Shown here: positions 34,473 to 64,000 of the stretch, piece by piece
Layout: every line of letters starts with the position of its first letter
Numbering within the stretch: position 1 is the stretch's first letter
Source: Candidatus Margulisiibacteriota bacterium
GTDB taxonomy: Bacteria > Margulisbacteria > WOR-1 > JAKLHX01
Length of the DNA stretch: 64,000 nt
Direction of reading: 5' to 3'
Assembly (NCBI GenBank): GCA_041650595.1
Contig: JBAZKW010000011.1
Span: 116-64,115 of the forward strand
Made by a program: the position numbers and the translations under genes
The notes under the pieces: model-generated
Told to the model about the DNA's origin: nothing
Databases searched by the model: none
What the model saw: the letters and a program-made list of their open reading frames with translations, nothing else

Positions 34473-34544
34473 GTCATTGCGAGCGTAGCGAAGCAATCCC
34501 ATAGATAAATGGGATTGCTTCAGGGCTTCGCCCTTCGCAATGAC
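34473..34544. repeat. Nested palindromic REP-like element (family A)
   Basis: GTCATTGCGAG...GAAGCAATCCCA/TGGGATTGCTTC...TTCGCAATGAC, between tpiA and pfp. Confidence 0.75.
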
Positions 34545-34561
34545 AGATGAAAGGAGATAAG

Positions 34562-38275: not shown

Positions 38276-38303
38276 CTATCGTAAGTTTCCGGAAGGAATT
38301 TCA
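38276..38303 (-). promoter_or_regulatory. Sigma-28-type promoter (TGAAAT-N16-CGATAG)
   Basis: Sense strand tTGAAATtccttccggaaacttaCGATAGa. AAAGGAAAG lies before the ATG at 38232. Confidence 0.6.
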
Positions 38304-38323: not shown

Positions 38324-40027
38324 CTAAAACTTACACCCTGCAGGAATTGCCCGATCCATAGCGTATTGTATTTCGTCAAGAATCCTTTGTCCCGTATTCA
38401 TGTCTGCTAAGCGCAATCCTGCCTTTCTTAACATCTCATAAACAGTTGCCAAATCAATATGCTCTGCCTGTCCTGATGCAAGGACATCAACCATCGCAAG
38501 TGTTTGTGAAGCATTCATTTGGAAATTGCCTACCTCTAGAATAATAAGATTGATTTCTTCACCGACCATTTTTTTGAGCTGTTGAAAAAGCTGATACATT
38601 GCAGATGGAGTGCCGGGTCGAGAAACAATTCTTGATATTTCCTCAATCCCCATTAGAAGCAGCTTAAGTGACGGATAACCTTCGCGCCGCTTGCCGAAAG
38701 AAAGCGGCAGCTCTCCGCGCAGGAATCTTTCTGCATCTGTATGATATGGCCTGCTTTGTTCCGAGCCGATGAATGAACTGATCCATTGCCTTGCTGTGCT
38801 CTGAGCTTTTTCCTCAAAATTGTCCAAACCTTTTTCCTCATACAAATAAACAAGCCCACGGACAATTCCGTGGAAAGCAACGCTTGGGTTTGAAAGGCGA
38901 GATAGAGTGCGGGCTTGATATTCCATATGTCCAGCAGCAATTTTGTCCCCTTTAGGCCTGACATTATCGACTGCCATAAGATCCACGAGAGAACGGACAA
39001 ATCTGGGTATGCTTACACCTGTCTTTCTTTCTCTTATTGATATAAGACGCAATTCATGCCTATCCTCCGCTGATTTTCTATAGATAGTATCGCCTGCATT
39101 AAGGAAATAATTTGCTATTGTTGTACCGCCTTTGGCCTCAGGTTCGTAATGATAAACAATGGAAGCAATGACCTCTGCAAGGACATCCGCAACATCTTCC
39201 TCGGGAAGTTTGACCAGTCGGCTTCTTTCGCCGCAAAACTCCCAGCGCCAGAGGGTCCCGTGTTCAAAACCCAGCTCTTCATAACCGCCGAGAAATTGTG
39301 AAATCCCGATCGTATATTTTTGATCGGCGACTGTCACATTACGTACTCCATAAGGTTTAGGAAGGAATCTTCGCCTTCCGATGCGCCAATAATGTTCAAA
39401 ATATTGCTGATTTTTGGCAATTGTTTCCGCACGCATTTTATTTTTGTTGCGCGGGATCTCCACGACAAGCTGCGGATTGCCGTCAATATTCACCTTCAGC
39501 AACTGCGAAAATGATCCCTGCTTAAATAACTCGAACTCTATTGTGTTCACATCAGGGCTAACTCCAAAAGGATGCCACAGCATTTTATCAGCCAACAGTT
39601 CATGTGCAGCTTTCCTTCTCAGATTGCCCAATTCTTCTCCGTCTAACATGTTTTTAGGGTCCGGATCATATGGTTCCGGAAAAGGTGTTATGTAATTCGT
39701 CTGAGCTCCTTCTAAAGAGTCATCATCTATTTGAGCTTGCAGAATCTGTTGCATAATAAGATGGTTTTGACCACTTTGTAATATCAATCCCCTTTTTCTT
39801 GAAATTTCACTGACAATTGCCGGTGATAGAGCAGGATGAACGAGCAGCTCTTCTAAAACAGCACTCAGCGCCGCTTTTTGCTTTGGAGAAATACCTCCCA
39901 GTTTGGCTTCGACTTTTGGCATGACCCGAGTAGCATTAAGCGATCTGCTGCCCAAATCAATATGTGAAGCTCTAAGGACTTGCGGCGTAAAACCTGATCT
40001 ATGACCCATACAGCTTGTAACTCTCAT
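38324..40027 (-). CDS. Hypothetical protein
   Basis: 567-aa ORF with no secure motifs. Its N-terminus resembles those of the two downstream genes. Confidence 0.55.
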   Translation of the reverse strand: MRVTSCMGHRSGFTPQVLRASHIDLGSRSLNATRVMPKVEAKLGGISPKQKAALSAVLEELLVHPALSPAIVSEISRKRGLILQSGQNHLIMQQILQAQIDDDSLEGAQTNYITPFPEPYDPDPKNMLDGEELGNLRRKAAHELLADKMLWHPFGVSPDVNTIEFELFKQGSFSQLLKVNIDGNPQLVVEIPRNKNKMRAETIAKNQQYFEHYWRIGRRRFLPKPYGVRNVTVADQKYTIGISQFLGGYEELGFEHGTLWRWEFCGERSRLVKLPEEDVADVLAEVIASIVYHYEPEAKGGTTIANYFLNAGDTIYRKSAEDRHELRLISIRERKTGVSIPRFVRSLVDLMAVDNVRPKGDKIAAGHMEYQARTLSRLSNPSVAFHGIVRGLVYLYEEKGLDNFEEKAQSTARQWISSFIGSEQSRPYHTDAERFLRGELPLSFGKRREGYPSLKLLLMGIEEISRIVSRPGTPSAMYQLFQQLKKMVGEEINLIILEVGNFQMNASQTLAMVDVLASGQAEHIDLATVYEMLRKAGLRLADMNTGQRILDEIQYAMDRAIPAGCKF

Positions 40028-40062: not shown

Positions 40063-40090
40063 TTATCGGCAATAAGGCGTGTGGATTTCA
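40063..40090 (-). promoter_or_regulatory. Sigma-28-type promoter (TGAAAT-N16-CGATAA; full GCCGATAA)
   Basis: Sense strand tTGAAATccacacgccttattGCCGATAAa. Confidence 0.65.
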
Positions 40091-49792: not shown

Positions 49793-50671
49793 ATGAAAAA
49801 GCTCATTGCCGGAGTAGATCTTGGCGGAACAAAAATATCCGCTGCGGTAGCATCTGCCGACGGAAAATTACTTGCCATAGAGACCATCCCTACTCTTGCT
49901 CACCTGGGAGTTAGTAAAGTCACTGACAGGATCGCCTTTGCTGTGAAATCCGCCTGCAAAAAAGCAGGGGTAACAATGAAGCAGATAAAATGTATAGGCA
50001 TAGGAGCTCCCGGGCCTGTGGATCCAAAGACTGGATATGTAAATAACCCCCCAAATCTGAAAGGATGGAAAAGGGTCAACTTAAAGAAAATAATGGCAAA
50101 AAAGCTCGGGAAAAAGATAATTCTGGAGAATGATGCCAATTGTGCGGCTCTAGCCGAGCTTAATTTTGGGGCCGGCCGCAGGTTCAATACCTTTATATAT
50201 GTTACGCTGAGCACGGGCATAGGCGGCGGAATAGTCATAGACAAAAAACTCTATACCGGTTTTTCCGGTTCAGCCGGCGAGGTTGGACATACAGTTATAG
50301 ATATTGACGGCCCAAAATGTACATGCGGAAAACGAGGACATCTGGAAGGACTTGCGGCAGGTCCTGCCGTAGAAAAAAGGTCCAAAATGTCGCCTGAAAA
50401 GCTTGGGGCATTGGCAAGAAAAGGCAACAAAAAAGCGTTAAAAGAAATCGACTATACAGGGCACCTAATTGGCCTTGGTTTTTCTAATATCGTGAATATT
50501 ATGAACCCCGAAGCTATAATAGTGGGCGGAGGCCTAACAAACCTGGGGAAACCTTTGTTTGAGGCAATTAAAACTACGGTAAAAGAAAACGCTCTTGCTG
50601 CGGTAAAGATCATTCCTGCACATCTTAAGAAAAATGTCGGGGTTATTGGAGCGGTAGCACTATGTCTATAG
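49793..50671 (+). CDS. glk: ROK-family glucokinase
   Basis: GVDLGGTKI and ROK zinc motif GHTVIDIDGPKCTCGKRGHLE. Confidence 0.85.
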   Translation: MKKLIAGVDLGGTKISAAVASADGKLLAIETIPTLAHLGVSKVTDRIAFAVKSACKKAGVTMKQIKCIGIGAPGPVDPKTGYVNNPPNLKGWKRVNLKKIMAKKLGKKIILENDANCAALAELNFGAGRRFNTFIYVTLSTGIGGGIVIDKKLYTGFSGSAGEVGHTVIDIDGPKCTCGKRGHLEGLAAGPAVEKRSKMSPEKLGALARKGNKKALKEIDYTGHLIGLGFSNIVNIMNPEAIIVGGGLTNLGKPLFEAIKTTVKENALAAVKIIPAHLKKNVGVIGAVALCL

Positions 50672-51282
50672 CTATAATTGATTACGGGGCCGGTAATCTA
50701 AGGAGCGTACAAAAGGCGCTCGAAAAACTCGGATTCTCTTCATTTATTACCAAAGACAAAGCTGCGGTCATTTCTTCACATGGGATCATTCTTCCCGGGG
50801 TCGGAGCTTTTGACAGCGCATTAAAAGAACTTCGGTCGCTCGGCATAGACAGTCTTTTGAAATCGCAGATAGAAGAAGGGAAACCTTTTCTGGGACTTTG
50901 TCTGGGCATGCAGGTGCTATTTGAAGAAAGCGAAGAAGGCCGCGAAAAAGGACTTGGCCTGATAAAAGGCAGGGTAAAAAAATTCTCTTTTACAAAGGAC
51001 ACCGCCTTAAAAGTCCCTCACATGGGTTGGAACAACCTTTTGATCAAACAACCCGCATGCCCTATCATGAAAAACATACCCCAGAACGTTAAAGTATATT
51101 TTGTGCATTCATACTACTGCGAGCCTCAGAACTCGATCGACATGCTTACAGAGACTGATTACGGTTTAAAGTTCGCTTCTTCCGTGAGCCGGGACAATCT
51201 TTTCGCCCTGCAGTTCCATCCGGAAAAAAGCGGCGAGATAGGCCTTGAGATACTCAAAAACTTCGGAGGACTGTGCAAATGA
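50662..51282 (+). CDS. hisH: Imidazole glycerol phosphate synthase glutaminase subunit
   Basis: Class I amidotransferase GLCLGMQ nucleophile. 206 aa. Confidence 0.9.
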   Translation: MSIAIIDYGAGNLRSVQKALEKLGFSSFITKDKAAVISSHGIILPGVGAFDSALKELRSLGIDSLLKSQIEEGKPFLGLCLGMQVLFEESEEGREKGLGLIKGRVKKFSFTKDTALKVPHMGWNNLLIKQPACPIMKNIPQNVKVYFVHSYYCEPQNSIDMLTETDYGLKFASSVSRDNLFALQFHPEKSGEIGLEILKNFGGLCK

Positions 51283-51986
51283 GATTTGTTGTGATCCCCG
51301 CTGTGGATATTTTGGGCGGCAAATGCGTCCGTCTCGAAAAAGGCGACTACGAAAAGGTAACAGTGTATTCCGAAGATCCCGTTTCAATGGCAAAAAAGTG
51401 GCAGGACCAGGGATATAAAAGGCTCCATCTGGTAGATCTTGACGGTGCCAGAGAAGGTATCCCCAGAAATATTAAATTTATAAAGGCGATCGCCGCGGCT
51501 GTATCCGTCCCGGTCCAGGTAGGCGGCGGAATAAGGCAGATAGACACGATAAGAGAGCTTTTCGAAAGCGGCGTGAACAGGGTCATCTTGGGCACCGTGG
51601 CATTTGAGAATCTAAGTTTCATCAAGACGGTGTGCGAGCTTTTTGGAGAGAATATTGCAGTCAGCATAGACGCAAAAAAAGATATTGTACTCACAAAAGG
51701 CTGGCTCGAAACGACATCGTTGAAAGCCGTGGAGGCGGCCAAAAAACTGGTTTCTATGGGTATAAAACGCTTTGTCTATACCGATATTTCGCGTGACGGG
51801 ATGATGGCCGGACCCAATATTAAAGGCATCAAGCAGTTTGCCTCCTCCGTAAACGCTTCCGTGATAGCGTCCGGGGGTGTTACCACCGGCCAGGATATAG
51901 AAAAACTTTCCAAGCTGGGAAAGAATATCGAGGGTTGTATAGTGGGAAAAGCATTGTACGAGGGAAAAATAAAAATAGATGAATAA
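51273..51986 (+). CDS. hisA: ProFAR isomerase
   Basis: IPAVDILGGKCVRL and VGGGIR motifs. 237 aa. Confidence 0.9.
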   Translation: MQMRFVVIPAVDILGGKCVRLEKGDYEKVTVYSEDPVSMAKKWQDQGYKRLHLVDLDGAREGIPRNIKFIKAIAAAVSVPVQVGGGIRQIDTIRELFESGVNRVILGTVAFENLSFIKTVCELFGENIAVSIDAKKDIVLTKGWLETTSLKAVEAAKKLVSMGIKRFVYTDISRDGMMAGPNIKGIKQFASSVNASVIASGGVTTGQDIEKLSKLGKNIEGCIVGKALYEGKIKIDE

Positions 51987-52638
51987 AAACGAAGATTTTC
52001 AAACCGAGCAAAACCTGCACAAGGTAAAGCAAGTGATCGAATATGCGAAGCAAAAAGACGTGGTATATAATGCAAAACAATTCGAATCTGGTTATCATTC
52101 TTTACATCTGGGCGATCAATACCTCCGCGGCCAAAGGGAATGCAGGGAAAGACTCGACAAACTGAATTATGATTTTTCCGGCAAAAATGTTCTCGACATC
52201 GGCACAAATATAGGGGGAATGCTCTTTTCGATACAAAAGGAGATAAACTACGGCATTGGAATAGACAATGAACCAAAATATATTAATGCGGCAAATTCCA
52301 TAAAAAGATATAACGGATATAAAAATATCGACTTTTTTCTGCTGGATCTGCAGATAGATCCTCTCGATATTCTGGACAATCTTATATTAGTTGGAAATAT
52401 TGATATTATATTCTTGCTTTCGGTATGCATGTGGATAGATAATTGGAAAGACATCATCTTATACTGCAGCAAAAAAGCTCCGGACCTCTTTTTTGAAACG
52501 AATGGAACAAACCAGCAGCAACTTGCGCAGATCGATATGTTGAAGAAGTTTTATAGGAAAATATCTGTCGTAAACATGTATTCCGATGATGATTCCGGAC
52601 AAATTAACAGGAGCACCCTTTTTTGCTCAAATAAGTAA
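51979..52638 (+). CDS. Class I SAM-dependent methyltransferase
   Basis: Motif I VLDIGTNIGGM. Confidence 0.65.
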   Translation: MNKNEDFQTEQNLHKVKQVIEYAKQKDVVYNAKQFESGYHSLHLGDQYLRGQRECRERLDKLNYDFSGKNVLDIGTNIGGMLFSIQKEINYGIGIDNEPKYINAANSIKRYNGYKNIDFFLLDLQIDPLDILDNLILVGNIDIIFLLSVCMWIDNWKDIILYCSKKAPDLFFETNGTNQQQLAQIDMLKKFYRKISVVNMYSDDDSGQINRSTLFCSNK

Positions 52639-52687
52639 GTCCGCCATCTAATCATGGCTTTTTCTGCTTGAAATGAATTAAATTTCC

Positions 52688-53779
52688 GTGTTAAACTTCA
52701 ATAAAATGTTGCAATTCGGACCAGCAGATAATGCATCCTTGATAAAACAGGCTGTAGAAAGTTGTCTGCATTCCCATTTTCAAAAAGATGAGATATCTAA
52801 CCCGAAAGCAAAAATACTGCCCATTAGGAGTTCCGGTCCAGATTCTTGCATATCCGTTCTTTTATTTTCCGCCAACAGGCCTGTCCTAGTGATCAAGATG
52901 CCAAGGATCAGACATAGAAAAATAGCCAACACCTCTATTGAAAACGAGTTTAAGATTCTCTCATTATTGAGTCGGAAAGGCCAGATATCATCACATGTAC
53001 CGAAAATAATTGATATGCTTAAAATAGACGGGGAGAATCTGCTTGTGACCAAGTTTATAGAAGGCACAATGTTAAATGAGGTGATCGATAACGAACTAGG
53101 CCCCAAAGAGTTTGATAAATATTCTTTTCAAGCAACAAAGATACTGTTGCTGATGAAAAAAAAGAGTGTTTTATCCTCGACTCAAGTAAACAAGACTTTC
53201 ATAGACAATAACGTGACATCTCCCGCCAAAAAGGCAGGTGAATATTTTCCACAGCATTTAAATCGCATGCAAAACTTCCTCAATAGTTTTTTTATATTTT
53301 ATCAACCTTCTGGGGAAATGCTCGCAAGCTGTATGTATCATGCGGATTTTAATCCATGGAATATTCTTTTTGAAAAGAACGGCAATCAAAGGATACTAGA
53401 CTGGGAAGATGCTTCGGAAGATGGTTTGCCAATGTTAGATCTTTATAACTTTTTCACAATACTTTTCAGGATTGCGATTATAGGCGAATCTCTAGATGCA
53501 AAGAATCGACCGATAGAAGCCAAGATCCTGAGGGCTGAATCCGTTATTAGTGCTTATCAGTCCTGCTCAAAAGAATACAAAAGCTTATTTGGTTTGAGCG
53601 ATGAACTTTCAGACCTTTTGTTTTTGATCTATGCATTAAAAAGCGTGCTCTTTTTTGTAACAACAAAGAGAAATGCTTTTGCTTATGCCGAAAATTGGTT
53701 GACCATGCTTTCAAACAACTATTCGAAAGGCTTTTTTGAACAATACATGAAAAGGACAGTCCAATCGTTCAAGGGATAA
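52688..53779 (+). CDS. Aminoglycoside/choline-kinase-like phosphotransferase
   Basis: Brenner motif YHADFNPWNIL and ILDWEDA. The start is uncertain (GTG at 52688 or ATG at 52706). Confidence 0.65.
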   Translation: MLNFNKMLQFGPADNASLIKQAVESCLHSHFQKDEISNPKAKILPIRSSGPDSCISVLLFSANRPVLVIKMPRIRHRKIANTSIENEFKILSLLSRKGQISSHVPKIIDMLKIDGENLLVTKFIEGTMLNEVIDNELGPKEFDKYSFQATKILLLMKKKSVLSSTQVNKTFIDNNVTSPAKKAGEYFPQHLNRMQNFLNSFFIFYQPSGEMLASCMYHADFNPWNILFEKNGNQRILDWEDASEDGLPMLDLYNFFTILFRIAIIGESLDAKNRPIEAKILRAESVISAYQSCSKEYKSLFGLSDELSDLLFLIYALKSVLFFVTTKRNAFAYAENWLTMLSNNYSKGFFEQYMKRTVQSFKG

Positions 53780-53783
53780 AACG

Positions 53784-54890
53784 ATGCAAATAGTATTTGT
53801 ATATTTTTGGCTGGATTTTGATGGTGATACGCTAAAAGACCGTCCGCTGGGAGGAGTCGAAACAAGCATTGTTATTATGGCAAAAGAGCTTGCAAAGCTG
53901 GGTTTTAGCGTAACTGTATTCAATAAATGCAGCCGTCCGGGAGTTTATGATGGCGTTATATATAGCAACACAGAAAAACTTCAAGATTATCTGCTAACAA
54001 ACAACATAGACATACTAATTGAAGTCCGCTCTGCCACAATTTTAGGGTGCGGCGGCCTGCGCATTAAGCGCAGAATATTTTGGTCGGGAGATCCGATCGT
54101 CTTTTTCGATGAGGCAAGAAAGAACCTGCGCAGGAGCGCAGTTCAATCTGTTATTGATAAATACTTTTTCGTGAGTAAATGGCAGGCCAATTCCTATCAA
54201 CAGAATTATAATCTTGAAATAAATAAAATATTTGTTACCAGAAACGGTTTCGAAAAAGAACTTATAGACGAAAAAAACATAGAAGCCTGCGATCATAGAA
54301 TGATTTACGCAAGCGTTCCGGATCGCGGGCTCGCATTGCTCGAACATATTTTTCCGCTTATAAAGAAAACTGTACCGGAAGCTGAGCTGCATGTCTTTAG
54401 CGGATATGAACACTATCAAATGAATGAGGCTGATATAAAACGCGTAATTGGAGATCTCTTTGTCAGACTTTCAAAGATCGACGGGGTATTTTTACATAAA
54501 GTTGTGAGCAGAAAGGAATTAATGGCTGAATTCAAAAACAGTTCATTTCTCATTTATCCTTGTACTGCTCTTGAAACATCGTGCATGGTTGCAATTGAAG
54601 CTCAGGCATGCGGGATACCGGTACTAGCAAGCTCATTAGGCGGACTTCCAGAAACCGTTCAGGACGGCAAAACAGGAATAATAGTCCCCGGTTCTCCGGA
54701 AAGTCAAGACTTTATTACTAAATTTGCTGAAGAAGCTATTAAACTAATACAAGACAAGGAACTAAGAGATGATCTTGGAGCAAATGCAAAAAAGCGCATG
54801 TTTGACAATTATCAATGGACAAAGATTGCTAAGGAATGGGAAGCAGTTCTTTCCAATATTTTGCAATTGTCAGAAGTGAAACACAACTGA
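53784..54890 (+). CDS. GT4-family (GT-B) glycosyltransferase
   Basis: GGVETSIV N-terminus, E-x7-E motif ETSCMVAIE, GGLPETVQDGKTGIIV. Confidence 0.8.
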   Translation: MQIVFVYFWLDFDGDTLKDRPLGGVETSIVIMAKELAKLGFSVTVFNKCSRPGVYDGVIYSNTEKLQDYLLTNNIDILIEVRSATILGCGGLRIKRRIFWSGDPIVFFDEARKNLRRSAVQSVIDKYFFVSKWQANSYQQNYNLEINKIFVTRNGFEKELIDEKNIEACDHRMIYASVPDRGLALLEHIFPLIKKTVPEAELHVFSGYEHYQMNEADIKRVIGDLFVRLSKIDGVFLHKVVSRKELMAEFKNSSFLIYPCTALETSCMVAIEAQACGIPVLASSLGGLPETVQDGKTGIIVPGSPESQDFITKFAEEAIKLIQDKELRDDLGANAKKRMFDNYQWTKIAKEWEAVLSNILQLSEVKHN

Positions 54891-54909
54891 TAGAATACCG
54901 AATGATTGA

Positions 54910-56064
54910 CTAAGGCATCCCTCTGATTATTTCTAGAGTCTTGATTATATCAAGCATCTGCGCCATATCAATATTGTCAGGTTTGTTCTTTAGTATTCCC
55001 TCGGCAAAAGATATAGCCGCGGCTTTGCCTATGGCTTTAAGAAGTGCCCTAATATGAAGAACATATATTAAAGAGCCCCATTTTTGTTCATTGAACATGA
55101 GAACGGGATGTTGAATTTTCGGGAGTTTTAACATTTGCTCTGTCAGCTCCAGCGCTTCCTCATATTTTCCCAATTTTATTAGTGCCATTGCCGCTGTATC
55201 GCAGGGCTCTAAGAACATCGGATCCAGCTTGATGGCCGCCAAAGCTTCGGCCAAAGCTTCTTCGCCGTGGCCGGATTCCAGAAGTATTTGAGCTTTCTTT
55301 GCCAGTGCGGCGTGCATAAAATATTTTTTTTGCCTGTCGGTCGATGCCTCTTTTTCACAGATAGAGACCGCCTGAGAATAGTAGCCCAGGGCTTCTTGTG
55401 GAAGTTTCATTTCGGAGTATCTCATGCCCAAAAGATACCGCACGGAATAATCTTCTCTATTTTCAGCCGCGATCTTTTTCAAAAGCTCGATCCTGGGTCC
55501 CATCTTTTTTTCCATAGCTTCGGCAGAAAGATGCAACCCCCAGTGGCAGATCCTGGCCCCAAGAAAATCAACAACGGAAACCTTTGTGTTTTCCGGGAAT
55601 ACCAACTGTTCATTGGCAGACTTTGTAAAACATGCGCCTTTGTTATTCCTGAATATTTTATCCCGCATATAAAAAGAATCGCCGTTTGTCTCTCCGTATT
55701 GGCATTCGTATATAGGGATACGGACAACATCGGCTTCTGTGCCATCCAAAAAGCCCCTGATCGCTTTAAATGAAAGCTCATCTATATATTCATCGGCATC
55801 CAGCCACAATATCCAGTCTTCTTTAGCTTTTGAGATAGAAAAATTCCTGGCATCGGCAAAATTGTTGTTCCACTTGAAATGATATATTTCAGCGCCTAAT
55901 TCTTTGGCAATATTAACAGTGCTGTCATCCGATCCCGTATCGACCAATATTACTTTGTCTGAATACTTTATATTATTGGAAATGGTTTTTGGCAGGCTTT
56001 CCTGTTCGTTCTTCACGATCATGCATATTGCAAGGCTTTTATTGTGCTTTTTTGCTAAATCCAT
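54910..56064 (-). CDS. GT2-family glycosyltransferase fused to TPR repeats
   Basis: CMIVKNE...VDTGSDD...LDADE (DxD), followed by TPR-like helical repeats. Confidence 0.8.
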   Translation of the reverse strand: MDLAKKHNKSLAICMIVKNEQESLPKTISNNIKYSDKVILVDTGSDDSTVNIAKELGAEIYHFKWNNNFADARNFSISKAKEDWILWLDADEYIDELSFKAIRGFLDGTEADVVRIPIYECQYGETNGDSFYMRDKIFRNNKGACFTKSANEQLVFPENTKVSVVDFLGARICHWGLHLSAEAMEKKMGPRIELLKKIAAENREDYSVRYLLGMRYSEMKLPQEALGYYSQAVSICEKEASTDRQKKYFMHAALAKKAQILLESGHGEEALAEALAAIKLDPMFLEPCDTAAMALIKLGKYEEALELTEQMLKLPKIQHPVLMFNEQKWGSLIYVLHIRALLKAIGKAAAISFAEGILKNKPDNIDMAQMLDIIKTLEIIRGMP

Positions 56065-56142: not shown

Positions 56143-56167
56143 CAGCCCCGATAAAACATCGGGGCTG
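56143..56167 (-). terminator. Rho-independent terminator of the giant ORF
   Basis: Minus strand: CAGCCCCGatgttttatCGGGGCTG followed by TTTTCGTTTT. Confidence 0.7.
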
Positions 56168-56204: not shown

Positions 56205-59200
56205 TTAATTCCCGTGTCTTTTACTATTCCAGTACTTCTTTACATCCTCCAGATTAACACCCTGTTCATGACATCTCCTGTAGCATTCAACCAACAGAGG
56301 ATGTCCTGCAACAAATGGTGCCGTCTGATGAAAGAACCCTGCACCTTTCTTTTCCGCCGGGTCTAAAGGAACATCAAGCATATGGTGAACACCGGATATC
56401 GCGCTGCCTCCTACTTTTTCGGCCAGGTAAGCCATCATTATAAGTTCATACCATGGTCGCAACCTGCCCCTTGCCCTTGATTCATCCGCAGTATATCCGT
56501 AAACAGAAAACGGCGTAGTCAATATTCTGTGTGTATCAACTGTACCTGCTCCGGTCCATGCTAATTCAGCGCCTTCTTTTTCGAGCAAAAATTTTGTAAA
56601 TTCCCATATCGCCGTGGGCCTCCACTGTGAGGGAGCGCCGCCCAGAGCGATGATCGGCCGTGCATTACTTGACTCCTGAACGCGTGTAATATGCCCCATT
56701 TTGCGGAACACCCCGTGCCTGTCAAGCATAAACTGCTCGACTCCATCTCCCCACTTTGAAGCCACAAAAAGCTGTTCGGTATATCCGTGATTTACCATCG
56801 CAACAGCTTCGAGCATGTCTCTGCCTGTTTTGCCTCTCAAAATTTCCGGAAGGAATTCGGGATTGTGCGGAAGTCGATCTCGCTTATCCTTTATTTGCGC
56901 AATATTACCCGCATCAAGAGGAACTCTGTACAAGCTAAGGAATGTGCCAAGCGACTGCAGTGCAGCGAATGTTGATGTTCCGTCAAGCGAATCTAATCCC
57001 CCTACAAGCATGCCATTAAGTTTTAAAGCTTCTATCATATTACCGACAAAAATACGGTCCTGTTCCTCGCCTCCGTGGAATGATAGTAAAGCTTTGGCAA
57101 GCGGACCTATCGGGTGTGCCGGATCATGAAGAGCCTTCATTATAGATTCATGAACAGCCGTTTCGCCTCTAGGATTATATGCAATGGCGGTAAACAGCTG
57201 CTCGGTCAGCCAATCGACATATTCTTGGGTATCTCCTGCAAAGTTTGCTACTCCGTGCGGAGCTTCAAGGGAAGCCCAAGGGAATAAAAGCCTGAAAACA
57301 GCAGCCATTGTCGGAACTACTCCAAGGATTCTTCGTATATCTCCGGGCATACCGGCACCTTTCATTGCTGTAAGATAATCACATAATGACTGATTCCTTC
57401 TGTTTACCTCAATGGTATGATGAAAAGCAAATTCATCAGATGATACCCTTACATTTTTAGTGACAGGCTTTGCCTTGATATCCCCGGAAGGCGCAAGCTT
57501 TTCAGTCATCCTTTCCACAGGCTCCTTAGCTCCGCACACCACAACATATTTTGCGCTGGAATTGAACAGATCATCACTGGACAGTTCTTTAACAAAATCC
57601 GCACCTGATTTCTTTGTTCCGTCGTCGCTTATCACGCATATCGCGCCCGCGGAATTTTCTACAATATGATAAAGAGAAAGGATATCTAGTGCTGAAGCGG
57701 TCGATATTGAAGATCCTCCATTAATAGCCATTTCATAATCGGTCGCGATAGGTATATAGCGTTCGCGCATCTTGACATCTTTTCTTTCCAGCATTGCCAT
57801 GATTATGGGCTGAACCGCAGGCGGATAATCCGAAATAGCCCCCAAAACGGCAAATTGCGAACCTGTTGTTTTCCTTTCCAGAACCGGCTCGTCTATGTCT
57901 CCTCTTCGCCGTTGGGCGATCGTTCCATCATGCATACGGATAAAATCCATAACTTTGAGCATATCGTCGCCCGGCTGCAGGGCAACGCACACTAATCCGT
58001 CGTTCAAAGAGTGATACATCACAAAAGTATTTACCAGATTCCCGGGAACAACATCCCCATCAAAGACAGAAACCGTTGAGACCATCATATTGTTGTCTCT
58101 TTCCACCAAATTATTGCCCTGGAGAGGATTGATAACCAATTGATATCTTCCATTGGGATTCTGGAATTCCGGACTTATGCTGTTGCTAAAATACACCCTA
58201 CCGATGTTATCAGCATCTGCAGTCAGCTTTATGCTATCTACCATTGCCTGCCTGACATTAGCCATCCTCTGGGCCGGATAACCAAATGTCCTAGTCGAAA
58301 GGTTTATTGTGTCCGCAGCAGCCGAGATCAGCGAGGAAATCGTACCGCTTATCGGGAAAATCGCCTTTGCTTGTCTTCCTAGTTCTGCATTTATCAGAAG
58401 GGCATGTTCTAATTTCCCGGCAACAACACCCTGCTGGCCGGAGTAGGAAGGCTGTTTCCTTGAGCGCAGTCCCAGGCACATCATTGCGCTCGCCGGCATC
58501 TGTAAAGTTGAGTACAGTAACTGACCAAGGATTGTTTCGTCAGCCCTATCCATTTGCATTCTCATCGAGGCATGTCCGTTTGCGGCCACCGCTTTTTCAA
58601 GGTCTTCCATTTCCCGCCTGTGCAGTTCGTCAATTTCTTTGTCGCCTGTGTCTTTCACCGAAACAAATGTAAAATATGACGGATTGGCAAGTAAAAGCGG
58701 CATTGTTCTTTTTGCCTCTTCATATCCAATAACTGTTGTATAAGTATCTACTCCAGGCTTGCCTCGCGATTCATTTTCCATTTGTTTAAAGTGGTCTACC
58801 AAACCGTCAAGACGAGGGTCCATCAAGACCATTACATTTGTCGGTGCTGTCTCTCCTAAATGCTTGTTCATCGCCCCCCATACTAATCCGACATTTTGGA
58901 GTACCAGATCAAGCACATCTTTGTTTTCTTCAAACAACTTTTTGTATGCGGCCAGCAATTGATCCCTTAGTCTTGCGGCATCGTCAGAGCTCCTTCTTGA
59001 CTCAAGCAGCAGCTCATCGATCTCCGTCAGCGCTGCCATGATCAATTTGCTCCGTTCTATCTGTTTATCAGGCTTATTAGGATCCTGAACTTTTTCTCTG
59101 ACTTTCGCGGACACGGCCGCCATATCTGTCTGCATCGCGGCAGCCCCTTTAAATAACGCTTCGGCATTATGCCCGGCTCTCTTCATCATCATTGCCATCC

Positions 59201-61289
59201 ACGCTGTAAGACAGCTGAATCTGGAATCAACCTTCTCCGATAGTTCCAAATGAGCTATGTCGGGATTTTTTCTGAGCAGTCCGGAAAGAGGGCTTGTACG
59301 TCTTGGAGCGCATGCAACTACTGTATGTTTATGTTGAACTCCGTTTTTGAAAAGAACCCCTGTCAGCGCATTTGTACACCTTGTCTGTCCGGAGGAAGAA
59401 GCCGTTATAAGATCTGCCTCCCCCATCCCTTCTCCTACAAATTCAAGTGCGTCAGATAATGCCGCAGCATCCGGCTGATCAAGAATTATAACTTTCCCTT
59501 CATTCCCAGGATTTGCAGCGATTTGGGTAAGCACTTTATGGATGGCCGTAAAAGCATTTCCTGATCCTCCTATCCCAGTAATAAAATGAGGCCCGCTACC
59601 GCGCCTTTCTGCTTCCATCTGTTCAATATCCGGTAACATAGCCAAGGTCTCCTGAGGTGATGTTATCCAACCGTGTTTGGTTGTTTTTGGCGGAGCTTCG
59701 ACAGCAAGTTGTACGCCCACACATAAAAGATCGCCAAGCATCTGATTAAATCTTAGAGGATCAGAGATTCTTTGCGTCCCGGAACCGATGGCTCCTTCTA
59801 TTTCCAAACTCAATCCACCTTGAGAAAATGAAGTTGTTTGTGCAATCTGATCTTTCTTTATCTCTTTGGACCTCAAAGGGGATGCCACCTTTGGTTCATA
59901 ACAACGTGAAAGAATTCTACCCAGGGCTAATGTATATACAACCTCTCTTCCTACTTGCATGGCATCCGGACTTTCCGCCATGCTTAGCGTTGTCGGCCGG
60001 CTGTTTGTTGCCAGCGCTTTACCATAAGCTTGCGCATTGGTGGCGTTGAACTTGCTCATCCATAAACCGTCAAGCTTTGGGTCTGGACAATTTTCGATAA
60101 CGATATCCGGACCCGTTCCGAAACCTCTGCGGAAGACTACAAAACCATGGTCGCCTTCTGCCCAATTTTGTTCGTCAGTATGATGAGCTCTTGGCAACAC
60201 CGCACAATCGATCAGCATTTCTCCTGTAGTGTTATTCATCGCACTGCAAATTTGCAGTCTCATCCATTTCACAAAATTTTCCCACTTTTGTGAATAAATA
60301 GCCTCTATAAATGTATTGCGCCCTTTCCCCGCCAAAACTTGCATTAGTGCGGCTTTTATCTCTATAGGATGGTCATCAGGCCCCATCAAACTGTCTCTTG
60401 CGTCCTTTGCTCCTTCTATGAGTTGTTGTATATCTATCCCTGCAAGTGTCAGAGGAAGAAGTGCCGCAGGAAAAAAGGATTCAGCATCAGCCAACCCTCT
60501 GGGAAGCGTAACTATACGGCAGTTATGTTTTTGGGACTCATCAACTAAATATCTATTGCTGCTTTGCAGCATAATGACCATATGCTCCAATTTGTCCGCA
60601 TCATTAAATTTTGCCACTAGTTCTTCGTAGCACATTGCCATAGCTGTTTTCTTCTGCCCTTCACTTGTCATGTTCCCCATAACTATCATTCCGGCTTTAG
60701 TGAAATCAATCTTGTTTTGCAACTGTCTTAAATTTCCCTCCGTCACAAAGTGGATCCTTGGAGAATTTTCACCATTTGTTCTGTCATTCCGATAAGTATC
60801 CACCAGCGCATCATGGGCCATTTTTATACCAACTTCGTCCGGCGCTATCACAAGAATGTCTTCCAGTCCTTTCAGGGCATCCGCAGCTTCCCGGATCTCT
60901 TGAATCACAGGTAAAGAAACCGTCTCCTCCAGATTAAACGCATTATCTCTCATCACACTCTGAGTTATCCTTCTGTCCTTCATAACGGCCAAAGTATCTT
61001 CTATTTCTTTTGGTGTCGCTCCTCTATCTCCTCTGATGATAGGAAGCCCCTGACCGTGTAGAGCATTGGCAATATCCAGCGCTATACCGGCAGAACGGCT
61101 ACTCTGAAATTTTGGGATCATTTGAGCAGAAGCTGCTTGAGCAGCTCCAATCTCAGCCTGCACGGGACAAAGTGTGAATGTCCTTCCTCCCATAGGAATA
61201 GGAAATTTTCTCAGGTGTTTCGGGACAAGATTTCCACAAACATTGCTCATAAGACCAGGATACATTTTAGTGAATACTCGAGCAGCCAT
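56205..61289 (-). CDS. Giant multi-module protein: degenerate PGI-like + PGI-like + degenerate FBPase-like + unknown C-terminal module
   Basis: 1,694 aa from the ATG at 61289, 8 nt after AAGGGAG; the track uses TTG at 61307. Motifs are listed in the findings: GIGGS / SSSGQT / DSRFSCLTA / QMENESRGK / QQGVVAGK, and NPLQGNN / RYI...GG / ENSAG. Confidence 0.7.
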   Translation of the reverse strand: MAARVFTKMYPGLMSNVCGNLVPKHLRKFPIPMGGRTFTLCPVQAEIGAAQAASAQMIPKFQSSRSAGIALDIANALHGQGLPIIRGDRGATPKEIEDTLAVMKDRRITQSVMRDNAFNLEETVSLPVIQEIREAADALKGLEDILVIAPDEVGIKMAHDALVDTYRNDRTNGENSPRIHFVTEGNLRQLQNKIDFTKAGMIVMGNMTSEGQKKTAMAMCYEELVAKFNDADKLEHMVIMLQSSNRYLVDESQKHNCRIVTLPRGLADAESFFPAALLPLTLAGIDIQQLIEGAKDARDSLMGPDDHPIEIKAALMQVLAGKGRNTFIEAIYSQKWENFVKWMRLQICSAMNNTTGEMLIDCAVLPRAHHTDEQNWAEGDHGFVVFRRGFGTGPDIVIENCPDPKLDGLWMSKFNATNAQAYGKALATNSRPTTLSMAESPDAMQVGREVVYTLALGRILSRCYEPKVASPLRSKEIKKDQIAQTTSFSQGGLSLEIEGAIGSGTQRISDPLRFNQMLGDLLCVGVQLAVEAPPKTTKHGWITSPQETLAMLPDIEQMEAERRGSGPHFITGIGGSGNAFTAIHKVLTQIAANPGNEGKVIILDQPDAAALSDALEFVGEGMGEADLITASSSGQTRCTNALTGVLFKNGVQHKHTVVACAPRRTSPLSGLLRKNPDIAHLELSEKVDSRFSCLTAWMAMMMKRAGHNAEALFKGAAAMQTDMAAVSAKVREKVQDPNKPDKQIERSKLIMAALTEIDELLLESRRSSDDAARLRDQLLAAYKKLFEENKDVLDLVLQNVGLVWGAMNKHLGETAPTNVMVLMDPRLDGLVDHFKQMENESRGKPGVDTYTTVIGYEEAKRTMPLLLANPSYFTFVSVKDTGDKEIDELHRREMEDLEKAVAANGHASMRMQMDRADETILGQLLYSTLQMPASAMMCLGLRSRKQPSYSGQQGVVAGKLEHALLINAELGRQAKAIFPISGTISSLISAAADTINLSTRTFGYPAQRMANVRQAMVDSIKLTADADNIGRVYFSNSISPEFQNPNGRYQLVINPLQGNNLVERDNNMMVSTVSVFDGDVVPGNLVNTFVMYHSLNDGLVCVALQPGDDMLKVMDFIRMHDGTIAQRRRGDIDEPVLERKTTGSQFAVLGAISDYPPAVQPIIMAMLERKDVKMRERYIPIATDYEMAINGGSSISTASALDILSLYHIVENSAGAICVISDDGTKKSGADFVKELSSDDLFNSSAKYVVVCGAKEPVERMTEKLAPSGDIKAKPVTKNVRVSSDEFAFHHTIEVNRRNQSLCDYLTAMKGAGMPGDIRRILGVVPTMAAVFRLLFPWASLEAPHGVANFAGDTQEYVDWLTEQLFTAIAYNPRGETAVHESIMKALHDPAHPIGPLAKALLSFHGGEEQDRIFVGNMIEALKLNGMLVGGLDSLDGTSTFAALQSLGTFLSLYRVPLDAGNIAQIKDKRDRLPHNPEFLPEILRGKTGRDMLEAVAMVNHGYTEQLFVASKWGDGVEQFMLDRHGVFRKMGHITRVQESSNARPIIALGGAPSQWRPTAIWEFTKFLLEKEGAELAWTGAGTVDTHRILTTPFSVYGYTADESRARGRLRPWYELIMMAYLAEKVGGSAISGVHHMLDVPLDPAEKKGAGFFHQTAPFVAGHPLLVECYRRCHEQGVNLEDVKKYWNSKRHGN

Positions 61290-61334
61290 AATATGATCTC
61301 CCTTCAATAGTGATTATAATTCCATCTACATGTT

Positions 61335-61362
61335 CTATCGTTAAAAAAAACCGGGGATTTCA
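61335..61362 (-). promoter_or_regulatory. Sigma-28-type promoter (TGAAAT-N16-CGATAG)
   Basis: Sense strand gTGAAATccccggttttttttaaCGATAGa. The -10 box ends 45 nt before the ATG at 61289. Confidence 0.6.
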
Positions 61363-61443: not shown

Positions 61444-62130
61444 ATGTTTTTGCGTACTGCCGTCATAAGGATAGGTCTGATATTGGGGATGCTTTTCATT
61501 TTCTTTGCATCTATTCCAATCGCTTTTTTTGCGTATACGGCTTCTATGTTCTCTGGGAACAGGCGTTTACGGTACCAACACGGCATACAAAGCGCGCTGA
61601 AATTTGTGCTGCCAAGGACCACTGTACACATCAACAATTATGAAATATTGCTGAACACCCCGACTCCTTTCATCCTGGCCGCAAACCATATGAACTATTT
61701 TGACTGGATGATACTTTATTCCCGTCTAAAAATTAATATATCCGTGATATCCGACACCTTTCTCGTCAAATTCCCGTTCTCTATCCTTACGAACAGAGCC
61801 GGTTTTTTTGCGATAAAACAAAAGCCGTCTTTTAGTCAAAGCAAAGCGGTCCTTAGGATAATAGACGCTATTAACAACAAAAATTCTGTGCTGATATTTA
61901 CAAACTCAGAAATGGATGCTTCTAAGTTTTTGGAAGATGTCAGGCCGGGAACGGCTTATCTCTCTATAAAGACAGGCGCCCCCGTGATCCCTGTACATAT
62001 AAAGGAGTTGAATGGCGGAAAAAGTTTTGACATTACTTTCGGCAATCCTATTTTGCCTGAAACAGAAGATATTGGGAAAACCGTAGAGTATGCAAAAAGG
62101 ATAGGCAGATCGATATTGTCATTAGGCTGA
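61444..62130 (+). CDS. plsC: 1-acyl-sn-glycerol-3-phosphate acyltransferase
   Basis: HX4D motif NHMNYFD. N-terminal TM helix. Confidence 0.8.
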   Translation: MFLRTAVIRIGLILGMLFIFFASIPIAFFAYTASMFSGNRRLRYQHGIQSALKFVLPRTTVHINNYEILLNTPTPFILAANHMNYFDWMILYSRLKINISVISDTFLVKFPFSILTNRAGFFAIKQKPSFSQSKAVLRIIDAINNKNSVLIFTNSEMDASKFLEDVRPGTAYLSIKTGAPVIPVHIKELNGGKSFDITFGNPILPETEDIGKTVEYAKRIGRSILSLG

Positions 62131-64000
62131 TCAGGCAGACCGGCTATTTTTGTCTTCTTTTTTGGAGATACTGCTCACGATCAATTCGTTTTCTTCTCCC
62201 TCTTCGTCATCTTCAAAAAATGGGATCAAACCCGTCCTCACTTTGGCAAGCATCTTCTTTAGCTTGTTTTCTCCTTTGATCGAGTCCTGCACGCCCGCAA
62301 TGATAGGCGCCTTGCTTGATACTGTCTCCGAACTACTCATCTTTGCTTCCTGCAAGATCGTTTCCGTGCGCTGCTTTAAGGATTCATCGCTGCCGGTTTG
62401 TTCTAGAACATTCCGGAAAAATGCTTGCAGCTTTTCTCCGCTGACTGATTTCATTGACGGGTTTAGAGCAAGCATATATGACAATATTTCAGGCGCCGCA
62501 TTGGGCCTGCTCAATACTGTTGAGACAAGATCGTCTGTCCCGGAACCATTTCGCGCGGACAATGCCTTTAATAAACTTACGGCGGAATTTTTGTGCTGCA
62601 AAGATAATTCCGCTTTTTTGAGCGATTCTCTAGCAAGTGATAAATTGTCGCAGATCGCACTGCGCAAAGAGGAACTCCCCATATTTTTACGCAGATCGCC
62701 GGATATCAGTTCGATGACCGATGAATATTTTTCAGCGTTTGACAGGTCGCTCCTCTTCATAATATCCGATATGCGGTCCGCATCCGTATACCCTGCACGC
62801 ACAGCTCTGTCTGCCAGCGCTTTCATCGGCTTTTCAATACTGGTCAAGTCAATATTTTCATTTGTACCGGTAGTTGATCTGACATTTTCCTTCACAGAAG
62901 CGGCTCTTTGTTTGATCCCTGCCGCTATCATAAGCAATTCTGATTTTTCATTATCGGCCGGCAGGTTGCCAAATGATGACGACAGTTCCTTTTGTATTTT
63001 CGAGATCTCATTGTTGTCAAATATTGTCGTCAATTCGGGGTTTTCATAAGATGCTGCCTTGACCGGCATAGACGGCTTTTCATTTGCTATAAATTTGATA
63101 GGTCCGTAGTTGCCGCTTATTGCTCCCGCAAACGGCGCTCGAAGATCTTCGTTTTTTTTGGATTCCGCAAAAGCCTTTGTAGCTTTCTGGGTCTTCTTGG
63201 CCAAACTCTCTATGCTTGCTTTCTTATTGTCGTCAGCTTTGGTAATGATCTCTGCAGCCCTGCTGACAGGCATTTCATTGAGTGCTTGGACAAGGATATC
63301 ATCAGGCATGCATTTAATTATCGCTTTTGAAGCTTTTTCATCGGACGAAATGACTGCAGCCCTAAGAGCCGGCGATTTTACAATATTTTCGAAGAATTTA
63401 TCTATTGAAGACGCAATCTCGTTCCTAGACAGATTTTTAGGATATTTTGTTCCAGCAGCTTTATTGTCGGTTCTTAATTCTTCGCGTACATCGGCCAACG
63501 CTTCGATTGCAGGGACAGCTATAGAATAGTTCTTTTGAACTAATCCCTCTTCGGAAAGAAACATCATCTGTTTTATAGCTTCGGCTGCTTTTGTTGGCTC
63601 TTTCCTTACAAGTGAAAGCAATTTCATACTTATCGGATTTAAGGTTTCCTTGACAGGCGCTTCTGCCTTTATCGGCTGCGATGTCACTACAGGTGCTTTT
63701 TCCGCCTGTCCGGATGCCTTTATGATAGGTGTCTTCTGTGGTCTTGCTGCATCGGGTCTTGATCCTGTTACCTGGGGACTCACATCTTGCAAGGAATCGA
63801 AAATTTCTCTTATTTCACTGAGCTTGTTCTGTGTATTCTGTTTTACATCATTCGGCACGTTTGCCCGTTCATTGACTTCTTCCGCTGCCTTTATTATTTT
63901 CAATCCCTCCGTCTTTGCCTTCTGCACCGACGCTTTAACTGTTTCGTCAACAGGTTTGTTTGACACCTCTTTCAGCATTGCAGCAAAGTCTTTCAGATTC
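62131..64000 (-). CDS. Large low-complexity Ser/Ala/Lys-rich hypothetical protein, 5' end probably outside the window
   Basis: The track starts at the ATG at 63978, but the frame remains open to the window edge (..NLKDFAAM). Helical, acidic C-terminal tail FFEDDEEGEENE. Confidence 0.5.
   Translation of the reverse strand, partial: NLKDFAAMLKEVSNKPVDETVKASVQKAKTEGLKIIKAAEEVNERANVPNDVKQNTQNKLSEIREIFDSLQDVSPQVTGSRPDAARPQKTPIIKASGQAEKAPVVTSQPIKAEAPVKETLNPISMKLLSLVRKEPTKAAEAIKQMMFLSEEGLVQKNYSIAVPAIEALADVREELRTDNKAAGTKYPKNLSRNEIASSIDKFFENIVKSPALRAAVISSDEKASKAIIKCMPDDILVQALNEMPVSRAAEIITKADDNKKASIESLAKKTQKATKAFAESKKNEDLRAPFAGAISGNYGPIKFIANEKPSMPVKAASYENPELTTIFDNNEISKIQKELSSSFGNLPADNEKSELLMIAAGIKQRAASVKENVRSTTGTNENIDLTSIEKPMKALADRAVRAGYTDADRISDIMKRSDLSNAEKYSSVIELISGDLRKNMGSSSLRSAICDNLSLARESLKKAELSLQHKNSAVSLLKALSARNGSGTDDLVSTVLSRPNAAPEILSYMLALNPSMKSVSGEKLQAFFRNVLEQTGSDESLKQRTETILQEAKMSSSETVSSKAPIIAGVQDSIKGENKLKKMLAKVRTGLIPFFEDDEEGEENELIVSSISKKEDKNSRSA

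Follow-up and report, generated by a model that had tools for sequence, protein, structure and literature searches.

Several enzymes of sugar metabolism have been noted as domains of very long proteins from Omnitrophota. West-Roberts et al. described glucose-6-phosphate isomerase (GPI)-like, fructose-1,6-bisphosphatase (FBPase)-like, TIM-like, aldolase-like and PGM-like domains in "Archaeovorin" proteins, and suggested extracellular pre-processing of sugars (10.1101/2023.11.21.568195). A 2026 preprint defines a "multi-enzyme metabolic" class of long Omnitrophota proteins, reports PGM, starch synthase, GT1, ROK-kinase and NUDIX content in this same class, and detects canonical phosphoglucose isomerase (PGI) in only 67 of 176 complete Omnitrophota genomes (10.64898/2026.06.07.730766). 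Here we analyse a gene from a 64-kb stretch of a Candidatus Margulisiibacteriota contig (64,000 nucleotides, hereafter the window), whose 1,694-amino-acid (aa) product is best explained as a soluble, four-module sugar-phosphate enzyme. Two of its modules derive from PGI and two from class I FBPase.

Arg243 is the residue behind the description of FBPase as an enzyme with shared active sites, and a 1994 paper by Giroux et al. is reportedly entitled "Shared active sites of fructose-1,6-bisphosphatase". Across the subunit interface, Arg243 of C1 contacts the active-site Ser124 of C2 (PMC4822563 Table 4). The ring-opening His of PGI acts as an acid catalyst (PMC9436075), and it is supplied to the active site by the other subunit (PMC12751066).

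The 1,694-aa protein has the domain order PGI-like 1, PGI-like 2, FBPase-like 3 and FBPase 4, and in each pair the catalytic residues are lost in a complementary manner. Module 1 lacks the in-cis catalytic residues of PGI yet has the His, and module 2 shows the reverse (eight family members each); module 3 lacks the metal ligands of FBPase yet has the Arg243 equivalent, and module 4 shows the reverse (family tables). Judged from sequence, each degenerate module keeps exactly the residue that is donated across the dimer interface of its parent enzyme, and appears to be more than a dead copy. One of two ancestral composite dimer sites would thus have been erased in both pairs, from both contributing domains, while the remaining site appears intact but divided between a "live" and a "dead" module. 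Residue numbers throughout refer to the 1,694-aa protein counted from its ATG, and the features of the gene, all on the minus strand, are as follows.

56205..61289, minus strand: whole gene; ATG start, 1,694 aa plus stop codon
61008..61289, minus strand: N-terminal region, residues 1-94 (sequence read directly)
59850..61007, minus strand: module 1, PGI-fold pseudo-enzyme, residues 95-480 (NCBIfam, family profile, residue table, AF2, Foldseek)
60180..60182, minus strand: codon of H370, which aligns with the PGI ring-opening His (rabbit/mouse His388; T. maritima DQHS)
58374..59792, minus strand: module 2, PGI domain with the full in-cis catalytic set, residues 500-972
57471..58367, minus strand: module 3, class-I FBPase-fold pseudo-enzyme, residues 975-1273 (hhalign, alignment, residue table, AF2)
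57765..57767, minus strand: codon of R1175, the FBPase Arg243 equivalent, kept in 11 of 11 family sequences
56208..57398, minus strand: module 4, class-I FBPase domain, residues 1298-1694 (Pfam, PDB, hhalign, Foldseek, residue table)
56143..56167, minus strand: intrinsic terminator hairpin followed by a T run; 11 bp stem with 7 G-C pairs, ~40 nt past the stop codon

Modules 1 and 2 share the sequence family and fold of PGI. NCBIfam PGI models match residues 119-344 (module 1, E 8e-18) and 535-723 (module 2, E 4e-21), and family profiles of the two modules match T. maritima PGI 2q8n with E 1.7e-38 and E 1.7e-51, respectively. A PDB sequence search with the whole protein aligns short-type PGIs (T. 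maritima / T. thermophilus) to residues 185-434. The AlphaFold2 (AF2) model of residues 95-975 has a mean predicted local distance difference test score (pLDDT) of 74.3 and a predicted template-modelling score (pTM) of 0.79, and Foldseek retrieves short bacterial PGIs with it at template-modelling scores (TM) of 0.70-0.75. These results agree with a preliminary description of this DNA, which had proposed tandem PGI-like modules, the first degenerate and the second motif-complete. To read off the catalytic columns, T. maritima PGI was added to the family alignments of both modules; P numbers denote homologues.

GIGGS Ser: lost in module 1; kept in 7 of 8 members in module 2 (S576; Q in P0003)
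SKSG..T phosphate loop: lost in module 1; Ser and Thr kept in 8 of 8 in module 2 (S631, T636)
GGRFS Arg: lost in 7 of 8 in module 1, retained only in P0011; kept in 8 of 8 in module 2 (R690)
QLxNESxGK Gln: kept in 8 of 8 in module 2 (Q836)
ESxGK Glu: lost in module 1; kept in 8 of 8 in module 2 (E840)
GVExGK Lys: motif absent from module 1; kept in 8 of 8 in module 2 (K959)
DQHSxxQ His: kept in 8 of 8 in module 1 (H370); absent in 8 of 8 in module 2, deleted or non-His (K860 by HMMER)
DQHSxxQ Gln: kept in 8 of 8 in module 1 (Q374); absent from module 2

Module 1 of the 1,694-aa protein itself retains H370, Q374 and R431 and none of the in-cis PGI set (phosphate Ser/Thr, Arg272, Glu357, Lys518). 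Its partner carries GIGGS (572-576), SSSGQT (631-636), R690, Q836..E840 (QMENESRGK) and K959 (QQGVVAGK), together with an additional helical insertion of ~80 residues at about 720-800. Each motif quoted in the preliminary description is present where it had been placed, although NAQAYGK of module 1 is not the DQPGVEAYK equivalent it was taken for: it precedes a conserved RP motif, and module 1 is without the C-terminal Lys motif.

Module 4 is the only part of the protein that any library scan recognises as FBPase. It matches Pfam FBPase_C (E 9.5e-13) with 48.5 bits, the cut-off being 27, and reaches 23.4 bits for PF00316, the Pfam model of the N-terminal domain, whose cut-off is 34.8; class-I FBPase library models match residues 1426-1670 and PDB FBPases residues 1420-1675 (E ~5e-9). 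Against a profile of 33 ordinary FBPases, hhalign gives 99.9% (E 1e-31, 298 columns), and Foldseek with the AF2 model of residues 975-1694 (mean pLDDT 80.1, pTM 0.85) returns class-I FBPases only, at TM 0.74-0.80 normalised to the target. Formerly called unrecognised, module 4 is in fact a full-length class-I FBPase and the best-preserved FBPase domain of the protein. Module 3 had been assigned by eye as a degenerate class I FBPase, and its family profile (11 sequences) confirms this against the same profile of ordinary enzymes (99.6%, E 6e-24, 211 columns). As a single sequence, module 3 gave no FBPase match in the PDB search, and the FBPase hidden Markov model (HMM) merely grazes it; its AF2 pLDDT is mostly 80-90. 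The preliminary description was thus right about modules 1-3, while its count of one competent module and two pseudo-enzymes gives way to two catalytically intact and two degenerate modules. The corresponding FBPase residues were tabulated over ~10 members for module 4 and 11 for module 3.

N64, D68, D74: kept in module 4 (N1349, D1353, D1359); region not aligned in module 3
E97, E98: kept in module 4 (E1408, E1409); lost or variable in module 3 (N1036, S1037)
D118: kept in module 4 (D1433); lost in 11 of 11 in module 3 (N1054)
D121, G122, S/T123, S124: kept in module 4 (D1436; DSLDGTS D1433-S1439); variable or lost in module 3 (Q1057)
Y264, R276: kept in module 4 (Y1599, R1611); in a remodelled or deleted region in module 3
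E280: kept in module 4 (E1615); E or D in 11 of 11 in module 3
GKLRLLYE loop: present in module 4; deleted in module 3
Arg243: A, G, T or N in 9 of 9 aligned sequences in module 4 (A1577), the permuted C-terminus of P0003 being unaligned; kept in 11 of 11 in module 3 (R1175)

The metal ligands and catalytic residues of module 4 are kept in about 10 of 10 members. The G122 equivalent of module 3 survives in the 1,694-aa protein and P0002 only.

Mean column identity is 41-42% in the alignments of modules 1, 2 and 3. Because this value is like that of the live module alignment, the degenerate modules appear to be under constraint, their conservation matching that of the live modules. In BLASTP comparisons the modules did not match one another significantly; they are too diverged for mutual detection, so the internal duplications are old and become visible through profiles only.

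We lean, if only slightly, towards reading the protein as two single-chain pseudo-dimers with one composite active site each, which probably convert fructose 1,6-bisphosphate (FBP) to fructose 6-phosphate (F6P) and then to glucose 6-phosphate (G6P). Modules 1 and 2 would pack like the two subunits of the PGI homodimer, with one of two composite active sites surviving. Module 2 is predicted to give this site the phosphate-binding Ser/Thr, R690, the catalytic base E840 and K959, and module 1 the ring-opening H370 in trans. Modules 3 and 4 would pack like the C1-C2 dimer of FBPase, module 4 contributing the complete metal and catalytic site and module 3 the Arg243-like R1175 in trans. The AF2 models suggest such an intramolecular dimer geometry, as pTM values of 0.79 (modules 1 and 2) and 0.85 (modules 3 and 4) would be unexpected for independently tumbling modules and so support a fixed two-module arrangement.

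If each pair retains one working site, the two would catalyse consecutive steps, from a sugar 1,6-bisphosphate to a sugar 6-phosphate (FBPase) and then from ketose to aldose by isomerisation (PGI). We infer from the retained residues that these would be FBP to F6P to G6P, or near analogues, and that the product may feed hexose phosphate to glycan or storage-polysaccharide synthesis. Such a role fits the GT4 and GT2-TPR glycosyltransferase genes adjacent to the 1,694-aa gene, the ROK-kinase-like and NUDIX parts of larger homologues, and the PGM, starch-synthase and GT1 content of long proteins.

Several observations weigh against this reading. Pfam PF00342 (PGI) was not reported for the 1,694-aa protein in the library scan, and the best NCBIfam equivalog reached 75 bits against a curated PGI cut-off of 487. 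The phosphate loop of module 2 is SSSGQT, not SKSGxT, and AF2 pLDDT is modest near H370 (about 58-62) and E840 (about 53). A reversible, pyrophosphate (PPi)-dependent phosphofructokinase is encoded in the window, so the need for an FBPase is not obvious. No conserved gene neighbourhood was found at the two homologous loci where one was sought (L001 and L003), and signal peptides on several homologues hint at a non-cytoplasmic role of the family. Finally, no member has an unaltered 6-phosphate pocket in module 4: N212 → G and K274 → R are family-wide and Y215 is variable.

Module 4 does not have the canonical 6-phosphate/fructose pocket (N212, Y215, Y244, M248, Y264, K274 and the partner Arg243). 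In the 1,694-aa protein N212 is replaced by G1550, K274 by R1609, M248 by G1582, Y215 by A and Y244 by W, with Y264 and R276 retained. Because this remodelling is family-wide, the substrate of module 4 may not be fructose 1,6-bisphosphate. The protein might then be active by the same pseudo-dimer logic on other substrates, in a specialised glycan pathway rather than gluconeogenesis: module 4 on sedoheptulose-1,7-bisphosphate or another sugar bisphosphate, and module 2 on mannose-6-phosphate or another aldose/ketose phosphate. In favour of such a shift are the changes at N212, K274 and Y215, the two insertions that module 4 has and ordinary FBPases do not, and the helical insertion in module 2; moreover, the neighbouring GT2-TPR, GT4, methyltransferase, APH-type kinase and HisH/HisF-like genes resemble a glycan-modification cluster. 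We nevertheless regard other substrates as unlikely, given that both domains are closest, in sequence and in fold, to genuine PGIs and class-I FBPases, that Y244(W), Y264, R276 and an Arg at 274 remain as pocket residues, and that the neighbourhood is not conserved among homologues.

It is improbable, in our judgement, that none of the four modules is catalytic and that the protein binds sugar phosphates through borrowed enzyme folds, as a sensor, regulator or scaffold. Two of the four modules are clearly dead, the scores lie far under curated enzyme cut-offs, the specificity pocket of module 4 is altered, and in larger homologues the cassette is embedded in huge multi-domain proteins of unknown role. 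Against this, modules 2 and 4 keep essentially every catalytic, metal- and phosphate-binding residue in members whose identity to the 1,694-aa protein over these modules is only ~18-30% (~44% for the closest fragments). The dead modules, moreover, retain precisely the trans-acting catalytic residues, a pattern expected of catalysis and not of binding alone.

The 1,694-aa protein belongs to a family. Residues 501-1694 were searched exhaustively with phmmer against 1.84 billion representatives, which yielded six full-length collinear homologues (1,684-4,388 aa) and four fragments, and below those ten only ordinary ~300-aa FBPases that match module 4 alone. With the whole protein as phmmer query, collinearity extends from ~residue 65 to ~residue 1690. 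Four of the ten homologues come from Candidatus Omnitrophota metagenome-assembled genomes (MAGs) and two from unclassified "bacterium" MAGs; NCBI names for the family are "hypothetical protein" or "NUDIX domain-containing protein", and larger homologues carry extra ROK-kinase-like and NUDIX domains. Pfam reports PGI and both FBPase domains in four of five homologues scanned, and P0005-P0008 exceed the Pfam PGI gathering score; P0003 gave a sub-threshold FBPase_C match only.

Genome searches added one further locus to the family. A scan of GTDB representative genomes found no relative with the single protein; with a 4-member alignment it returned one Omnitrophota locus (L001), a 3,620-aa open reading frame (ORF) on groundwater MAG contig JACPWF010000025 with Pfam PGI and FBPase matches, and a second locus, L002. 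The 1,694-aa protein is collinear with this ORF and with P0007, P0008, P0010 and P0011. Two metagenome-contig scans found no relatives. A word-indexed homologue search returned the protein itself alone when queried with the whole protein, nothing, itself included, with the module-3 alignment, and itself plus the transaldolase-PGI protein P0074, its sole non-self match, with a 12-sequence family alignment.

L002 (6988-8625, plus strand) is a 545-aa ORF in a Gastranaerophilales MAG and matches the PGI part of the query alone. It is probably an ordinary PGI and not a family member, because the search pattern resembles an ERNGYxR stretch common to T. maritima PGI and module 1. At L001, where the neighbours are agmatine deiminase, a 1,641-aa orphan and purine genes, this orphan (1498-6423, plus strand; no Pfam match) lies directly upstream of the 3,620-aa ORF with a slight overlap, and a single, longer gene may here have been divided by a frameshift. 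The P0003 locus (L003) has a small zinc-ribbon gene and a 1,557-aa TPR protein as neighbours. In the last ~180 residues of P0003 (L003 6586-11757), a LAIGGEP...FAWSGSGAVD segment follows the GRLRVFYE...GG segment; the corresponding residues of the 1,694-aa protein (~1521-1589) precede that segment, in the opposite order. Module 4 of P0003 thus shows an apparent circular permutation or rearrangement, or an assembly error.

The closest relatives, P0002 and P0004 (38-45% identity), are two ORFs on one 8.6-kb contig and are probably one gene split by a frameshift. Their division into two ORFs, and the metagenome-type source contig of the present gene (64,463 bp), could suggest that separate pgi and fbp genes were joined by an assembly or gene-calling artefact. 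The chance of this is practically negligible: the frame stays open without a break for 5.1 kb and has a single Shine-Dalgarno sequence, start and terminator; an ORF with these four modules in this order is encoded in at least seven independent assemblies; and the complementary losses make sense only if the modules co-evolved in one chain. The artefact is thus effectively refuted, and the ORF is a real 1,694-aa gene with its own terminator rather than a mis-assembled chimera.

By eye, the N-termini of P0005, P0006, P0007, P0008 and P0011 show a hydrophobic Sec-type signal peptide ending AxA (...QASA/NPF, ...TAYA/VPD). No hydrophobic signal peptide or transmembrane segment was seen, also by eye, at the N-terminus of the 1,694-aa protein, where the final part of residues 1-94 aligns with the pre-PGI helix of the homologue family; P0003 likewise is without a signal peptide, and localisation may differ within the family.

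Two lineage-specific short motifs recur in the larger homologues. RSExR occurs four times in P0008 (residues 531, 578, 1020 and 2165; 0.0 expected) and [AG]ARL six times in P0010 (residues 1063, 2669, 2776, 3090, 3119 and 3157; 0.4 expected). In both proteins a copy directly ahead of module 1 and another directly behind module 4 bracket the cassette, and P0008 has a further copy between modules 1 and 2; the motifs could act as linker signatures or as sites of proteolytic processing. The 1,694-aa protein contains no RSExR, and its one AARL, at residue 771 in module 2, is no more than chance would give.

The homologues raise the question of an exported or prey-directed unit, which would act beyond the cytoplasm, or inside a host or prey cell, on sugar phosphates released from prey, the 1,694-aa protein being a stand-alone copy that uses a non-Sec route. 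Typical Sec signal peptides ending AxA at the start of P0005, P0007, P0008 and P0011 are consistent with export, and the RSExR or AARL motifs around the P0008 and P0010 cassettes could serve as processing sites. The GPI-like and FBPase-like domains of giant proteins are, moreover, predicted to be extracellular (10.1101/2023.11.21.568195), and 94% of long Omnitrophota proteins are membrane-anchored or secreted (10.64898/2026.06.07.730766). For the present protein we find this scenario quite improbable: it has, like P0003, neither an N-terminal signal peptide nor a transmembrane segment, it is without the junction motifs, no secretion genes are adjacent, and phosphorylated sugars are scarce outside cells.

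Transcription and translation signals can be assigned around the gene. The open frame 56205..61307 on the minus strand comprises 1,700 aa when counted from an in-frame TTG at 61307. A Shine-Dalgarno sequence, AAGGGAG at 61298-61304, lies 9-15 nt upstream of the ATG at 61289; this ATG is the more likely start, because AAGGGAG precedes it and the TTG falls inside that Shine-Dalgarno region. The upstream neighbour, an acyltransferase gene (61444..62130), is divergently oriented, and together with the strong downstream terminator this makes the gene look monocistronic. Two promoter-like elements precede it.

61336..61361, minus strand: promoter-like motif (T)GAAATCCCCGGTTTTTTTTAACGATA, 46 nt upstream of the ATG; class TGAAAT-N16-CGATA
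61313..61318, minus strand: perfect TATAAT hexamer, 23 nt upstream of the ATG; without a good -35

The preliminary description had proposed a sigma-28-type promoter. The strict sigma-28 consensus TAAA-N15-GCCGATAA has no match upstream of the gene within three mismatches, and such matches are common in the window (124 observed, 82 expected). A real recurrent motif with the same spacing as that proposal is nonetheless present: GAAA-N17-CGATA has eight exact matches in the window against 1.12 expected, a number reached in none of 100 shuffles. Seven of the eight have the form TGAAAT-N16-CGATA(A/G) and precede start codons by 36-52 nt; one of these start codons is that of the 1,694-aa gene.

23000-23025, minus strand: TGAAAT-N16-CGATA(A/G) site
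23202-23227, plus strand: TGAAAT-N16-CGATA(A/G) site
28152-28177, plus strand: TGAAAT-N16-CGATA(A/G) site
31048-31073, plus strand: TGAAAT-N16-CGATA(A/G) site
38277-38302, minus strand: TGAAAT-N16-CGATA(A/G) site
40064-40089, minus strand: TGAAAT-N16-CGATA(A/G) site
61336-61361, minus strand: TGAAAT-N16-CGATA(A/G) site, before the 1,694-aa gene

Motif-bearing ORFs without a Pfam match are 22267-22959, 23266-23994, 28221-29564, 37012-38232 and 38324-40027, and the motif also precedes a GSU2086-family gene (31126-32250). The motif class may mark an alternative-sigma regulon of orphan genes, either sigma-28-like or of the extracytoplasmic function (ECF) type. The B. subtilis sigma-W promoter reads TGAAAC-N16-CGTA, and the TGAAAT-N16-CGATA spacing fits sigma-28 and ECF-type promoters equally; the sigma-28 proposal is supported only in part. 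The TATAAT hexamer is a possible alternative -10 element of the sigma-70 type, which the promoter scan did not report, its -35 being poor.

No ordinary pgi or fbp gene was found elsewhere in the 64 kb with HMMs built for the purpose. Other steps of glycolysis are encoded in a cluster at 29574-36196.

29574-30974, minus strand: pyruvate kinase
33718-34467, plus strand: triose-phosphate isomerase
34547-36196, plus strand: long PPi-dependent phosphofructokinase

The block 49793-56064, which adjoins the 1,694-aa gene, resembles a glycan or sugar-modification cluster. It encodes a ROK-family kinase, a HisH-like glutamine amidotransferase, a HisF-like cyclase, a methyltransferase, an APH-type kinase and a GT4 glycosyltransferase, with a GT2 glycosyltransferase fused to TPR repeats on the opposite strand, and GC falls to 0.37-0.41 across 52-56 kb. 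On the other side, past the divergent acyltransferase, a 615-aa low-complexity ORF rich in Ser, Lys and Glu (62131-63978, minus strand) has a weak, sub-threshold MgtE_N/FliG-like match. Farther away, a LexA repressor (25508-26101) adjoins an IMS/DinB-type Y-family polymerase (23963-25243), forming an ordinary SOS pair (23963-26101, minus strand). An Rfam scan of the whole window gave no matches, and no rRNA or tRNA was found.

If our preferred reading of two pseudo-dimers holds, one chain would show twice how an obligate homodimer with shared sites becomes a fused pseudo-heterodimer with half the sites. The decay would be cleanly split between copies, and H370 and R1175 are predicted to be essential although they lie in "dead" domains. 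Because the family is filed as "hypothetical" or "NUDIX domain-containing" and the 1,694-aa protein scores far below curated PGI cut-offs, PGI or FBPase may mistakenly be recorded as missing when the metabolism of Omnitrophota-like genomes is reconstructed. A broader and distinctly tentative proposal is that an unrecognised single-chain form of PGI plus FBPase, built as intramolecular pseudo-dimers with one composite site each, could fill apparently missing steps of upper glycolysis and gluconeogenesis in such bacteria. Giant homologues might release the cassette by processing at flanking junction motifs, and in this locus the gene might be co-regulated with orphan genes via the alternative-sigma promoter. 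The stand-alone version, at 1.7 thousand aa, is a tractable form of a module otherwise buried in proteins too large to express.

Compared with known enzymes, modules 1 and 2 share the fold and sequence family of the short bacterial/archaeal-type PGI, an obligate homodimer (T. maritima TM1385, 2q8n; PF00342). Module 2 has the PGI motifs GIGGS, SxSGxT, GRF, QLxNESxGK and QPGVxxxK, and module 1 the xxH..Q and RP motifs. In contrast to that enzyme, two copies are fused here, neither has a complete residue set, and one of the symmetric sites is erased from both sides; module 1 is also without the C-terminal Lys-bearing segment, and module 2 has the ~80-residue helical insertion.

Class I FBPase (PF00316 + PF18913; pig/human FBP1/FBP2, E. 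coli Fbp) is a homotetramer in which Arg243 is shared across C1-C2. Module 4 aligns with it over 298 columns with all metal and catalytic residues, and module 3 belongs to the same fold family; the region of the dynamic 52-72 loop is of low confidence in the model, as expected. Unlike that enzyme, the present protein has two copies tandemly fused. Module 3 is without the metal site and the GKLRLLYE loop, and module 4 is without Arg243, carries N212G and K274R, and has insertions after the D74 helix and near residue 140.

Asymmetric ABC transporters such as CFTR and TAP1/2 have one consensus and one degenerate ATP site. By analogy, not homology, they may serve as a mechanistic precedent: two homologous domains form two head-to-tail composite sites, one of which is inactivated by complementary substitutions across both domains, although fold and chemistry are unrelated to those of the 1,694-aa protein. 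In transaldolase-PGI fusions (PF00923+PF00342; e.g. P0074), PGI is likewise fused to another sugar-phosphate enzyme. These differ in having one PGI copy with complete residues that dimerises between chains, a transaldolase rather than an FBPase as partner, and no pseudo-enzyme modules.

The very long Omnitrophota multi-enzyme proteins are the closest described systems, and the same four-module cassette occurs within Omnitrophota proteins of 2,181-4,388 aa with NUDIX and ROK-kinase-like parts. The preprints define the very long class by a length of at least 10-30 thousand aa and a signal peptide and/or membrane anchor; the 1,694-aa protein is the cassette alone, without signal peptide, transmembrane segment or junction motifs. 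The preliminary description knew of no such fusion; this needs qualifying, as an unannotated family exists and the two preprints note GPI-like and FBPase-like or sugar-metabolism domains in very long Omnitrophota proteins. It holds in that neither preprint describes the four-module cassette with its 2+2 tandem arrangement, the stand-alone form or the complementary degeneracy. Its enzyme folds are known, and so is the fusion of several enzymes in one protein; undescribed is the proposed architecture of pseudo-dimers within a single chain.

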